A stretch of 64,000 nucleotides of DNA from Bacillota bacterium (GTDB lineage: Bacteria; Bacillota; Clostridia; TANB77; CAG-508): the NCBI GenBank assembly GCA_963928415.1, contig CAWVEX010000023.1:10-64009 (forward strand), read 5' to 3'. Below are positions 43,351-50,228 of this stretch, one piece after another. Below the pieces are notes generated by a model. That model made no database searches. It saw only the letters and a list, made by a program, of their open reading frames with translations, and was not told the origin of the DNA. Within the stretch, counting starts at the first letter, position 1, and every line of letters starts with the position of its first letter. A program made the position numbers and the translations under genes.

Positions 43351-43722
43351 TTATTCTGCTTTTTTAGTTGTCTTTTTTGTTGTAGCTTTTTTTGGAGCTT
43401 CTTTTTTCTCTTCAGTAGCTTCAACTTTTGCTTCAGCTTTCTTTGCTGGAGCTTTTTTAGCTTCAACCTTAACAGCTAATTTGCTTTCAAGTCTTGATTT
43501 TTTTCTTGAAGCTGCATTCTTAGAAATAACTCCTTTTGAGCAAGCACTATCTATTTTACTTTTTGCTTTAGATAATAATTCTACAGCTTCTTTATCTCCA
43601 TTGTTGTTTGCTGCTTCATATTTCTTTATAGCTGTTTTACATTCTGATTTTATCATATTATTTCTTTTTGTTTTAGTTTCTGCAACTTTAACTCTTTTTA
43701 TAGCTGATTTAATATTTGGCAT
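43351..43722 (-). CDS. rpsT: 30S ribosomal protein S20 with a K/A/E-rich C-terminal extension
   Basis: [12 protein letters not shown]...[14 protein letters not shown] at 43722, 6 nt after GGGAGGTG. The track's GTG start at 43731 lies inside the SD. 123 aa. Confidence 0.9.
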
Positions 43723-43909
43723 GTTTTGCACCTCCCTTTAGTGTATTAAACTATAACATATGATATTATAGCATAGTTTTTCGTATATGACAAGTATTTG
43801 AAGAAAAAAAGTTTATTTGACATAACACAGTTAATTGAAGAAAGTAACTTCTATTCATAATAATAATTTGAAGCTATACGAAATTGCGTTTATTTTTTTA
43901 CAAAATGTA

Positions 43910-43939
43910 TTGACTTTTGTTAATAAAAAGAGTTATAAT
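43910..43939 (+). promoter_or_regulatory. Promoter of the type III TA cassette: TTGACT, 18 nt, TATAAT
   Basis: ttgact at 43910-43915 and tataat at 43934-43939. Confidence 0.6.
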
Positions 43940-43979
43940 GAATATAATAATAAAGATACACAATGTATCTTGTTCAAAT

Positions 43980-44082
43980 CAAATGTTAACCGCCACCCTG
44001 TTGGCGAGATATAAATGCACAGGTGAGCAAATGTTACTCGCAACCCTACTTGCGACAAATAAATGCGTAGGTGGACAAATGT
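43980..44082 (+). ncRNA. ToxI/CptI-like antitoxin RNA: two 48-nt tandem repeats plus a 7-nt partial third
   Basis: Repeat A is 43980-44027 and repeat B is 44028-44075, with 36 of 48 positions identical by hand alignment. CAAATGT recurs at 44076-44082. The region is GC-rich relative to its flanks, and compensatory changes preserve a hairpin and a pseudoknot. Confidence 0.75.
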
Positions 44083-44090
44083 AGCAAGAA

Positions 44091-44116
44091 ATCTACCCTT
44101 AAAAGGTAGATTTTTT
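44091..44116 (+). terminator. Intrinsic terminator between the repeat RNA and the toxin ORF
   Basis: atctacc / ggtagat 7-bp stem with a 7-nt loop, followed by TTTTT. Confidence 0.7.
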
Positions 44117-44134
44117 GTTAGAAATGAGGTTATA

Positions 44135-44605
44135 ATGAAAGTAGAAAATGGGAAATTTTATTTTATAAAAGATAATTTTTTTGATTTATTTAAAGATTAT
44201 AAATTAATGCAAAATAAGGAAAATGGAAATAAAAGACCATGTTATTTTTGTTTTAACGATATAGAAGATGAACGAATAGTATGGTTTGTCCCAATATCTA
44301 GTAAAGTCGAGAAGTATAAAGCTATATATGAGAATAAAAAGAAAACTAGAAAAAAAGTTTATAATTTTGTTTTTGGTAAAGTATTAGGAAAAGAAAAAGC
44401 ATTTTTAATTCAAAACATATTTCCGACGACAGAAGAATACATAGAAAGTAAATATCAAAGTAGAAATCAAGATGTAGAAATAACAGAAAGTTTAAAAAAT
44501 GAAATAATAGAAACCTCTATGAACGTTATACATTTAGCTCTAAAAGGTATTAATATTCCGTTTTATGATATTATAGAAATGAAGAAGATACTAATATATA
44601 ATTAG
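44135..44605 (+). CDS. ToxN/AbiQ-superfamily type III toxin (endoribonuclease), 156 aa
   Basis: SD GAGGT lies 4 nt before the ATG at 44135. KFYFIKDNFFDLFKD...RPCYFCF...VWFVPISSKVEKYK parallels the ToxN/AbiQ N-terminal pattern (KFYTI..YI.YL...RP.IGI...YF.PLSSPK). Size and context both fit. Confidence 0.7.
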   Translation: MKVENGKFYFIKDNFFDLFKDYKLMQNKENGNKRPCYFCFNDIEDERIVWFVPISSKVEKYKAIYENKKKTRKKVYNFVFGKVLGKEKAFLIQNIFPTTEEYIESKYQSRNQDVEITESLKNEIIETSMNVIHLALKGINIPFYDIIEMKKILIYN

Positions 44606-44659
44606 TACCTTCTTTTTATACTTAAATATTATTCATTCACAAAGTTAAGTTTAACTAAA

Positions 44660-46480: not shown

Positions 46481-48130
46481 TTACCTGCCATCGTCTTGTT
46501 CTTCATCACTGGATTTTCTACCGTCTCTTACTATTGTATTGTTTCCTGTTTGAGAGTATTTTATCTTGTCTACTTTATATTTCTTCAAATAATTTTTATT
46601 GTAAAATTTTGTATTATTTGATTTATCATAACTATTCAAGTTATCCTTTATTTTTTCGTATTCTCTTTCAATTCTATCATAGCAATTTTTTAATCTATTT
46701 ATTATTCCTATTTGGCCTATGTCAAAATTTTCATTATACCCTAAAACATTCCTATTACTGTTCATGTAATCTGATATTCTGTTTAATATAGTGTCTCTTA
46801 AATTTGTTTTCAATATATTATCCAAGACACAAGCAAATTGAATTACTGTCGTTATTCTCTTCCTATCATTCTCGCTAAGGTACCATCCATCAGACACTAC
46901 TGTTTTTCCAGTTTCCGAGTCTAAATATCTTATTCTATCAATGTCACTTTTGCTACCCGAATATTTACCATAGAAATGAATTATAGTCTTATCTCCTACT
47001 TTATCAATAAAACTTATATTATAACATTCATTATCTGCAATAATATGTATGCTTTTCATAAAGTCCATGACTACTAATTTAGAATCTGGCAAATATACCA
47101 ATTTTAAATTTTTATTATCTAACCTTTTTCTTTCAAATTCTTCTCTTTGTTCTTTTGTAATAAATTTAGCTAACCAATCTAAAGATATTTTGTCTATATC
47201 TTCTTCTTTTAGTGGAAGTGTAGGTTCTATTGGTTCTACTGATTTTTCAGTTTCTTTTGGTTTTGTTCCAAAATAATCTCTTATTCTCCTAAAAATACTT
47301 TTCTTTTCCTTTGCTATTGCCAAAGCTGTTGTTTCAAGTTCTTCTGTTTTTTCTTCTCGTGAATTATTTTGCTGTATATTAGCACCTCTTATGGCTTCAT
47401 TTTGGTTTTGTACATAACTTAAAAGTTTCCATATTTCATCATCTGCAAATGCTTCTTTTCCACTCATTAATTTATACTTTATTCTTTCTAAGACATTACT
47501 AACCTGTGGAGTAGTATTTTGAGATAATCTATTTATTTCACCATTTAAGAATATTGTAAGACCTGGTATATCTTGTCCTGATATTTCAAACTCATCTATT
47601 GCACCTTCTCTTACTCTTCTTACCATAAAGTTACCATATAAATTGTATAAAGCTTTTTCTATTTTATCTCTATCTTCAAAACTATATTGTGAAATTGAAC
47701 TATCATAAGTTTGTTTTAATTTTTCAAATTCAGTTTCATAATCTTCTAAAGACAGTTTCTTACCATCTTTTTGCATATCTTGTATTTGTTGAAATATTGC
47801 TTGTCCTTTACTTTCTAACACCTTTTGATTTCCGTCATTTTTCTTATATGCATCTAGTTCTAGATTTAACTCAGTATATTTTGAGTAAAATTCCTGTTGA
47901 CTACTTATATGCAATAAAGCATTATATTTTTTTAATAAGCCTTCTGCCGCTTCTGAGTCATACAACAATATTTGAGATATTTCTACTTGCAATGGTTTTA
48001 ACATTGTTTCATATACTGTATTTCTTTGCTCTTGTGTAAACTCTATATCACTCTCAAGTTCTAGTTTTGGTCTTAACATTTCATTAAAATCTGGTAAACT
48101 TCCATTAGAAAAGCTATCTTCTTCTTTCAT
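46481..48130 (-). CDS. Hypothetical 549-aa protein inserted between gatA and gatB
   Basis: Long uninterrupted ORF. AAGGAGGAG SD, with the ATG 12 nt after the gatA stop. No TM segment, signal peptide or domain motif that I recognise. The N-terminal half is helical and E/K/Q-rich, and the C-terminal half appears mixed alpha/beta. Confidence 0.6.
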   Translation of the reverse strand: MKEEDSFSNGSLPDFNEMLRPKLELESDIEFTQEQRNTVYETMLKPLQVEISQILLYDSEAAEGLLKKYNALLHISSQQEFYSKYTELNLELDAYKKNDGNQKVLESKGQAIFQQIQDMQKDGKKLSLEDYETEFEKLKQTYDSSISQYSFEDRDKIEKALYNLYGNFMVRRVREGAIDEFEISGQDIPGLTIFLNGEINRLSQNTTPQVSNVLERIKYKLMSGKEAFADDEIWKLLSYVQNQNEAIRGANIQQNNSREEKTEELETTALAIAKEKKSIFRRIRDYFGTKPKETEKSVEPIEPTLPLKEEDIDKISLDWLAKFITKEQREEFERKRLDNKNLKLVYLPDSKLVVMDFMKSIHIIADNECYNISFIDKVGDKTIIHFYGKYSGSKSDIDRIRYLDSETGKTVVSDGWYLSENDRKRITTVIQFACVLDNILKTNLRDTILNRISDYMNSNRNVLGYNENFDIGQIGIINRLKNCYDRIEREYEKIKDNLNSYDKSNNTKFYNKNYLKKYKVDKIKYSQTGNNTIVRDGRKSSDEEQDDGR

Positions 48131-49631: not shown

Positions 49632-50228
49632 TTAAAGTTTTTGTGATTCTTCTTTCCAGTCTAATAACTCTTTTAATTCTTTTTGAACATCTTCTAAGTT
49701 TCTACAATTATCTATGTTCACAACATGAATGTTTTTATACTTTTCTTTAATTTCTTCTGCTAATTTTAAATATTCATTTTGTTGATTTACACTGCTTTGT
49801 TTTTCAAATTTTGTGTATTTTACTTTTGCTTTTCCTGCTCTATCTAATCTTGTAACATATTCATCCTCATTACTTAAGTATAATGTTATGTAATAAATAT
49901 CAAAGTCCATTTGAGATAATCTGTTTAATAATTTATTATATACATCTGTAAATGAATAATCCTTAAAACCTAATCTACAATAAATTTCTTCTGTAAAAAA
50001 TGTTCTATCAAAAAGTAAATTTATACTTTTATTTTGCAATTTTTCTATATAATCCATTAAGTCCTCATACATTACTTTTGCTTTTTCTTTTCCTGCTTTA
50101 GTTATATCTGCTGTTCCACTTAATCTGTATAAATTTGTATATGGTATTACTTTTCTAATATAATCTGTTATTGTTGTTTTTCCTGCTCCTTGTGGTCCTT
50201 CTACTATTATTATTTTTGAGTTTGACAT
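49632..50228 (-). CDS. P-loop NTPase / nucleoside(tide)-kinase-like protein inserted between gatC and gatA
   Basis: Walker [12 protein letters not shown] at residues 9-19. Its size of about 200 aa and LFDR...E motifs resemble the dNK/TMPK fold. Specificity is unknown. Confidence 0.55.

Follow-up and report, generated by a model that had tools for sequence, protein, structure and literature searches.

A probable CptIN-family type III toxin-antitoxin module with two non-identical antitoxin repeats between rpsT and a SASP gene in a clostridial genome

Introduction

What is a compact cassette of promoter, short tandem repeats, terminator and small open reading frame (ORF) doing on the plus strand between the minus-strand genes rpsT (ribosomal protein S20) and SASP? 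The question is raised by a locus in a 64,000-nucleotide stretch of DNA from a Bacillota bacterium (GTDB lineage Bacteria; Bacillota; Clostridia; TANB77; CAG-508; assembly GCA_963928415.1, contig CAWVEX010000023.1, positions 10 to 64,009 of the forward strand), the whole of which is called the window here. A preliminary description, made from the sequence alone, took the locus for a type III toxin-antitoxin cassette, likened the N terminus of its 156-aa product to ToxN/AbiQ, placed its repeats closest to the two-repeat, roughly 45-nt CptI arrangement while allowing for a variant family member, and regarded it as a defence (abortive-infection) locus.

Type III systems fall into three families defined by toxin sequence, and the CptI RNAs could not be aligned in the 2012 survey (PMC3401426). 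The 33 cptIN loci surveyed there were all chromosomal, came from Firmicutes, Fusobacteria and one archaeon, and had repeats of 40-48 nt (mean 44.8) in 1.9-3.4 copies with toxins of 45-213 aa (PMC3401426). In the system of Eubacterium rectale the toxin, CptN_Er, is a twisted antiparallel beta-sheet with surrounding helices that resembles Kid and is without the kinked helix of ToxN/AbiQ, while the antitoxin RNA, CptI_Er, has coaxial duplex stems, a one-base loop L1 and a long A-rich loop L2 that forms an A-minor twist with an outward-facing kink base, U30; toxin and RNA form a 2:2 ring, and the processed RNA ends in a 2',3'-cyclic phosphate (PMC4627078).

Results

The product of the small ORF is, by profile and by modelled fold, a predicted CptN toxin and not a ToxN/AbiQ protein. 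Its translation matches the NCBIfam equivalog NF047359 (type III toxin-antitoxin system CptIN family toxin) with 167.9 bits against a cutoff of 90 (E 1.3e-49), covering profile positions 1-150 of 150, and this was the sole NCBIfam family matched at E <= 1, the presence of a TenpN model in the libraries being unconfirmed. Pfam yielded a sub-threshold CTD9 match and none to ToxN_toxin at E <= 1, and no PADLOC model matched the toxin; both libraries appear not to cover CptN. Among solved structures, E. rectale CptN alone is significantly similar in sequence (PDB 4RMO_A, E 3.4e-19, residues 4-141). AlphaFold run on 11 close homologues alone gave a model with a predicted local distance difference test score (pLDDT) of 38, which was discarded; after the E. 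rectale clade had been added, giving an alignment of 33 sequences in two clades that share 31-38% identity, pLDDT rose to 87.4 with a predicted template modelling score (pTM) of 0.84. The best PDB match of this model is again 4RMO_A, with a template modelling score (TM) of 0.83 both ways and a root-mean-square deviation of 2.6 Å over the full length, and the runners-up are MazF/Kid proteins at TM ~0.46-0.49. AbiQ (4GLK) ranks 50 at TM ~0.55, and the N-terminal likeness to ToxN/AbiQ was thus not borne out, while the profile and structure comparisons that the preliminary description had proposed as checks both point to CptN.

When the toxin is aligned to CptN_Er, the active site residues S51/S52, R30 and Y104 correspond to S55/S56, R34 and Y107, all of them invariant in the 33 sequences of the two clades, while R53 corresponds to K57, at a position that is variable within the E. 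rectale clade as well. A longer reading of the frame, as a 180-aa ORF starting at 44063 within repeat 2 and ending at 44605, also appears in the list of ORFs; the 156-aa start, which the preliminary description had chosen together with its Shine-Dalgarno sequence, is supported by that sequence, by conservation and by the profile alignment. Database entries of relatives (P0002-P0068) are often over-extended in the same manner, to 180-225 aa, and all of them are unnamed or labelled 'hypothetical'. The identical toxin protein is encoded on 11 contigs. Among relatives, the toxin frame is interrupted in four loci (L017, L041, L045, L054), and in L025 the stop codon has been lost and the frame reads through into a 382-aa fusion; some of the relatives' copies are decaying.

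Upstream of the toxin gene, Tandem Repeats Finder (TRF) reports a single array at 43980-44082 with a period of 48 nt, 2.1 copies and 78% matches, in agreement with the earlier coordinates and period for two direct repeats and the first 7 nt of a third; the two copies are not identical and differ at 12 of 48 positions. Searched over all 64 kb, a pattern for the unit signature has exactly two matches, where 0.03 would be expected. Scanning the GTDB species genomes gave 80 related loci with toxin identities of 63-90%, all in metagenome-assembled genomes (MAGs) of uncultured gut Clostridia, for example Clostridium sp. CAG:245. A repeat of 46-48 nt in ~2.1-2.2 copies at the same offset was found by TRF in 62 of 83 loci, and in the other 21 both units are present, too diverged for TRF.

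The 66 unique units from these loci were aligned and used to test an H-type pseudoknot model with a first stem (S1) of 5-6 bp, an L1 of 1 nt, a second stem (S2) of 5 bp abutting the 3' strand of S1, and an A-rich L2 of 11-12 nt. Across the 66 units, 97.1% of the cells hold standard pairs, a share that drops to 28-49% if the 3' side is shifted by 1-3 columns; both sides have changed in 8 of the 11 pairs, and 93 cells are compensatory against 35 ± 5 in shuffles. RNAalifold, which cannot predict pseudoknots, independently finds S1. L1 is a single, invariant C, the adenines of the L2 motif and the U that follows them are invariant or nearly so, and AAUGU, preceded by a nearly invariant A, is present in all 66 units and at all three junctions in the window. 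For comparison, the DNA of CptI_Er was taken from an E. rectale-type contig whose CptN is 97% identical, with the register set by the residues numbered in the published structure; cptI there has a 45-nt unit in 2.1 copies that are 100% identical, and its L2 (A27-G35) is AUAUAAAUG, a nonamer found unchanged in unit 1 of the window. The position equivalent to U30 is variable (T in 55 units, C in 8, A in 2, G in 1), as expected since the kink base makes no contacts. Rfam contains no curated CptI family and at E <= 10 returned chance matches around the terminator only, including a weak Phe_leader match (20 bits against a gathering score of 55) that reflects the terminator and nothing else. On covariation and on the shared loop motif, each of the two window repeats is predicted to fold as a CptI-type H-type pseudoknot.

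The order promoter, short tandem repeats, Rho-independent terminator and toxin ORF is that of CptIN loci and is kept in the 80 related loci, where the full layout runs -10 box, 5' hairpin, AAATGT, unit 1, AAATGT, unit 2, AAATGT, terminator, Shine-Dalgarno sequence and ATG (window coordinates in Table 1). The promoter stands where it had been placed and matches the consensus at 11 of 12 positions. Promoter-like sites are no commoner in this AT-rich region than in shuffled sequence (8 found, 8.6 expected), and support for the promoter therefore comes from conservation and not from the scan: TTGAYN-17/18-TATAAT stands upstream of the relatives' cassettes in 50 of 74 unique regions, and nucleotide homology with the relatives sets in at ~43896-43903, just 5' of the -35 box. 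Both the leader hairpin and the terminator hairpin keep their positions in relatives while their stem sequences differ; the leader hairpin may stabilise the transcript or may be a leader that is discarded. The hairpin with a T-run before the ORF proved real, its stem longer than the 7 bp first given, with a core of 9 bp (44089-44097 with 44105-44113) that extends to 15 bp and a T-run at 44111-44116. The Shine-Dalgarno sequence is conserved in relatives as (T/A)GAGG or AAGGAG. The partial third repeat would provide the third junction by which two complete units could be released. Both flanking genes lie on the minus strand as described, with gatB next after the SASP gene, but the surroundings also hold plus-strand genes, namely hpf and a 209-aa ORF just upstream.

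Table 1. Features of the cassette and its insertion site (window coordinates; S1 and S2, pseudoknot stems; L1 and L2, pseudoknot loops)
Feature	Position	Strand	Detail
Inserted segment, 752 bp	43830-44581	+	absent from 98-99% identical empty-site strains and outgroup
Cassette promoter, sigma-70-type	43910-43939	+	-35 TTGACT 43910-43915, 18-nt spacer, -10 TATAAT 43934-43939
Leader hairpin of antitoxin transcript (5')	43953-43971	+	8-bp stem AAGAUACA/UGUAUCUU, z = -3.6
CptI unit 1, 48 nt	43980-44027	+	junction motif AAAUGU 43981-43986
Unit 1 S1	43991-43995 with 44002-44006	+	L1 = C43996
Unit 1 S2	43997-44001 with 44019-44023	+	L2 = 44007-44018, containing AUAUAAAUG at 44009-44017
CptI unit 2, 48 nt	44028-44075	+	75% identical to unit 1; junction motif 44029-44034
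Unit 2 S1	44038-44043 with 44050-44055	+	L1 = C44044
Unit 2 S2	44045-44049 with 44067-44071	+	L2 = 44056-44066
Start of third unit, CAAAUGU	44076-44082	+	third copy of junction motif
Intrinsic terminator between antitoxin and toxin	44083-44119	+	-17.4 kcal/mol, z = -6.9
Shine-Dalgarno sequence GAGG	44126-44129	+	5 nt 5' of ATG 44135
cptN toxin gene, 156 aa + stop	44135-44605	+	predicted endoribonuclease
SASP gene terminator hairpin, pre-existing	44582-44614	-	present in empty-site strains

The differences between the two repeat units follow the predicted fold. Seven of the 12 differing positions in the window lie in stems, six of them forming three compensatory double changes and one adding a pair, and both units keep all stem pairs. 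The same divergence is found throughout the clade, with a median identity between units of a locus of 77% (range 61-90%, 67 loci), and it is tied to position: within each toxin clade first units share 86-89% and second units ~95% identity with one another, while first and second units share only 74-81%, and where S1 meets S2, 40 of the 41 first units have a U-A pair and all 25 second units a C-G pair. Taken singly, each class keeps the fold, with 98.2% paired cells in unit 1 and 95.3% in unit 2 and double changes at 6 and 3 of the 11 pairs, respectively. Between clades, first units share 78.3% with one another and 76.5% with second units, overall identities that do not resolve whether the units diverged before the toxin clades split; the sole support for the earlier divergence is the U-A versus C-G signature at the S1/S2 junction. 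According to a 2025 survey, the toxI and cptI repeats described so far differ little, and unlike repeats are a tenpIN feature whose functionality it leaves open (PMC12283969); repeats that have diverged while being individually conserved are thus unusual for cptIN.

Further variation on the theme of paired units was seen among relatives. An additional CptI-like unit (CAAATGTTACTCGCCACCCTGTTGGCGAC...) follows the toxin stop codon in L060, L061 and L077, ~20 nt past it, and in L064; these may be tandem cassettes or orphan antitoxin units. A single MAG, BRZ_CS__bin95, carries two cptIN loci (L035 and L079), one from each toxin clade, with 89% and 64% identity to the window, and in L079 several pairs of S2 in unit 1 have been exchanged (CGUCAC...GUGAA), a pattern that fits cognate-specific co-evolution.

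Comparison of strains identifies the cassette, as far as sequence can tell, as a recent, horizontally acquired insertion of 752 bp between rpsT and the SASP gene, because near-identical strains have an empty rpsT-SASP site. At this site, contigs encoding the identical SASP protein fall into filled and empty ones, with flanks 98-99% identical, and the more distant outgroup L088 is empty. The empty site reads GACATAACA(C/T)A-AA-AGAAGATAC, and the insert, which replaces 1-2 nt of it, holds the entire cassette but for the final 8 codons of the toxin ORF. Those codons and the stop (KKILIYN*) are the plus-strand reading of the pre-existing terminator hairpin of the SASP gene, which on the minus strand lost the T-run that followed it to the insertion. 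The join falls where the native 3' end of the toxin gene, GAAATGAA(A/G)AA(A/T)ATATTA..., resembles the target, AAAAGAAGATACTAA..., such that the tail still reads KKIL. At the insertion, the window shows no target-site duplication, no terminal inverted repeats and no recombinase. The pattern suggests, on sequence, that similarity-assisted illegitimate recombination brought the cassette in. A deletion origin of the empty sites, between the TGAAGAA(A/G) repeats at 43836 and 44580, was considered and rejected, the predicted product not matching the empty-site sequence and the outgroup L088 being empty too.

The left end of the insert (43830-43895) is not conserved in relatives from other species, none of which shares a donor context for these 66 nt; the closest relative, P0002, occupies the same slot. 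A 96% variant with an intact ORF fills this slot in a sibling lineage, and none of the 80 other-species relatives has rpsT or an SASP gene near its cassette. A serine recombinase is encoded within 3 kb of the cassette in 33 of 83 loci, in 23 of them just downstream and closely orthologous to a large serine recombinase of 531 aa (Resolvase + Recombinase + Zn_ribbon_recom); an integrative element thus often carries the ~700-bp module as cargo.

Elsewhere in the window, the gatCAB operon is interrupted twice on the minus strand. A 549-aa ORF at 46481-48130, between gatA and gatB, belongs to no Pfam, NCBIfam or PADLOC family and is polymorphic, being carried by the window, L087 and L093, while L084, L086, L089, L091 and L092 have gatA directly upstream of gatB. 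Between gatC and gatA, at 49632-50228, lies a 198-aa P-loop kinase-like ORF with weak dTMP kinase and AAA_14 matches and PADLOC matches at noise level, an unusual interruption of gatCAB. The 3' part of rpsT (43351-43470, minus strand) encodes a long C-terminal extension of S20, rich in Lys, Ala and Glu, from imperfect 12-15-nt tandem repeats.

Discussion

Toxin profile, sequence match to 4RMO, predicted fold and covarying pseudoknots together make it very probable that the locus is a CptIN-family type III toxin-antitoxin module that works by the mechanism proposed below, as the preliminary description had foreseen in naming a type III cassette and the CptI arrangement as its nearest kin. It is a new member of the family and not a new or variant family, because the 48-nt unit, the 2.1 copies and the 156-aa toxin all lie inside the published cptIN ranges (PMC3401426), which disposes of the variant status considered earlier. 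Like the surveyed loci it is chromosomal and from Firmicutes (Clostridia); it differs from them in standing at the upper limit of repeat length and, it seems, in belonging to a clade of uncultured gut Clostridia whose MAGs were sequenced later.

The closest characterised system is that of E. rectale (4RMO; PMC4627078), with which the window locus shares its gene order, ~2.1 repeats, the toxin fold, the Ser-Ser/Arg/Tyr active site and an H-type pseudoknot with coaxial S1 and S2, a 1-nt L1 and an A-rich L2 of identical core. The two differ in toxin sequence (identity ~33%), in the base of L1 (G in E. rectale, C in the window), in the identity of the repeats (100% versus 75%) and in unit length, the 3 nt by which the window unit exceeds the 45 nt of CptI_Er reflecting extra length in L2 (2-3 nt) and in the single-stranded linker, less the 2-nt spacer between S2 and S1' that the window unit lacks. 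The junctions differ as well, being UUGA↓AAGUUU in E. rectale (G44-A45, cyclic phosphate) and (N)AAAUGU in the window. On L094 and L095, an RNA ligase gene (PF09414) immediately precedes the E. rectale-type cptIN locus (399-1328) and a Peptidase_M15_4 gene follows it, a neighbourhood of RNA-repair enzyme and endoribonuclease toxin that is perhaps worth attention.

More distant systems share single aspects. Those tenpIN loci that have non-identical repeats (PMC12283969) likewise carry two unlike tandem repeats capable of forming pseudoknots, with a conserved A-stretch, but belong to another toxin family, the window toxin being CptN by profile and structure. MazF and Kid, type II toxins, have the same core fold and differ in forming dimers, in having a protein antitoxin and in the lack of an upstream repeat RNA. 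ToxIN of Pectobacterium atrosepticum and AbiQ of Lactococcus have in common with the window locus the promoter, repeats, terminator, endoribonuclease toxin and self-processed pseudoknot antitoxin; ToxIN differs in its 36-nt ToxI unit with triplex interactions, its 3:3 hexamer and the kinked helix of its toxin.

The proposed mechanism takes promoter, repeats, terminator and pseudoknot from the sequence itself, and toxin processing and ring assembly from E. rectale CptIN. A single promoter would give a transcript with a small hairpin followed by two 48-nt CptI units bounded by three AAAUGU motifs. The strong intrinsic terminator would halt most transcripts before cptN and so keep antitoxin RNA in excess, read-through supplying the cptN mRNA. 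CptN, a putative endoribonuclease of Kid/MazF fold with a Ser-Ser/Arg/Tyr site, would by analogy cut the precursor at the junction motifs into two 48-nt RNAs, each freed RNA presumably adopting the H-type pseudoknot in which S1, the 1-nt L1 and S2 are coaxially stacked and the A-rich L2 lies in the minor groove of S1. Toxin and processed RNAs would then close into an inactive ring, probably of two CptN and two CptI as in 4RMO, with which the two units per locus are compatible. Were transcription to stop or the RNA to be degraded, the more stable CptN would be freed and may cleave cellular (or phage) RNA, leading to growth arrest.

Several points weigh against this reading. The residues of CptN_Er that read the scissile adenine, D81 and S85, align to L84 and K88 in the window toxin, whose substrate or cleavage-site readout, judged by sequence, probably differs from that of CptN_Er; since the junction sequence differs too, the cleavage site is not transferable by homology, and the analogy with CptI_Er (GA↓AAG) does not place the cleaved bond. 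D81 and S85 are, however, particular to the solved protein and do not define the family. The last 8 codons of the toxin are chimeric, derived from the target, and we assume that the toxin is fully active with this tail. Toxicity, RNA processing, complex formation and phenotype are inferred by homology with the characterised systems. Finally, CptIN systems that were tested gave no phage protection in E. coli (PMC3401426): neither E. rectale nor Ruminococcus torques CptIN protected Escherichia coli from six coliphages, while CptIN_Er stabilised a plasmid (PMC3401426, PMC4627078, PMC5086642).

The first and third of these points could also mean that the locus is a decaying or domesticated CptIN remnant whose toxin, with its chimeric C terminus and altered base-reading residues, is inactive and which has no toxin-antitoxin function here. 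The relatives with frameshifted or interrupted ORFs (L017, L041, L045 and L054, for example) and the truncated CptN genes with full repeat sets listed in the survey (PMC3401426) would be precedents. However, the ORF spans all 150 positions of the profile with every catalytic residue intact, the replacement affects a stretch past the final conserved helix where KKIL still resembles the native ...EMK(K/N)ILL, the L84/K88 substitutions are clade-wide and not peculiar to this locus, both RNA units keep every stem pair, the identical protein recurs on 11 contigs, and the 96% variant in the same slot has an intact ORF; we consider a remnant quite improbable.

Two further alternatives concern what kind of system this would be. 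Transcription-attenuation leaders, too, place structured RNA and a terminator ahead of an ORF, and the repeats might then act in cis, in the manner of an attenuator or riboswitch, to control the ORF instead of serving as a trans-acting antitoxin. That is hard to square with an ORF homologous to a protein crystallised bound to such repeat RNA, with an essential L2 loop motif identical to that of CptI_Er, with duplicated units and invariant junction motifs that fit the processing of monomers and not a switch between alternative structures, and with a predicted fold in which no anti-terminator pairing is evident, and we think it extremely unlikely. Membership of the ToxIN/AbiQ family, suggested by the like locus layout, the broad fold common to type III toxins and the TM of ~0.55 with AbiQ, has next to no chance of being right: the window toxin has no profile-level similarity to ToxN/AbiQ, its resemblance to them is limited to the shared broad fold, CptIN is its sole curated family match, 4RMO leads the structural matches by a wide margin over AbiQ at rank 50, and the RNA is a CptI-type duplex-only pseudoknot with 1-nt L1 and A-rich L2, not the 31-46-nt ToxI architecture.

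If the locus is a CptIN module, what it does for its host is a separate matter. Abortive infection, as first proposed, is not established for CptIN, the two tested systems having given no protection from phage in E. coli, as described above. Selfish retention or DNA stabilisation and phage defence seem to us about equally likely; only stabilisation has experimental support within the CptIN family, and the association with mobile elements and the polymorphism among strains fit either role.

Taken jointly, the diverged units and the insertion allow a more speculative proposal, which we put forward tentatively and think unlikely to hold. Members of this clade may use two antitoxin RNAs as a rule, in separate positional lineages with their own compensatory changes, and the two toxins of the ring may be bridged asymmetrically by one unit-1 and one unit-2 RNA, perhaps assembled in cis; in addition, the ~700-bp module may enter chromosomes without a recombinase of its own, by way of short similarity. 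If true, the asymmetric ring would contrast with every toxIN and cptIN system characterised, in which identical repeats build a symmetric complex, and recombinase-free entry would leave natural pairs of filled and empty strains.

As CptIN has already been described and its structure solved, the finding adds little in concept. It does provide covariation evidence from natural sequences for the CptI pseudoknot, including an A-minor L2 motif conserved across toxin clades that share about one third of their residues, and it reveals a cptIN lineage with systematically non-identical repeats in which each unit is independently under structural selection. It also carries a point for annotation: gene callers routinely place the toxin start too far upstream, beyond the terminator and within the repeats, and the products carry the label hypothetical despite the curated NCBIfam model. 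Lastly, the near-isogenic filled and empty strains in gut metagenomes constitute a natural experiment on the role of CptIN that would become accessible if isolates were obtained.

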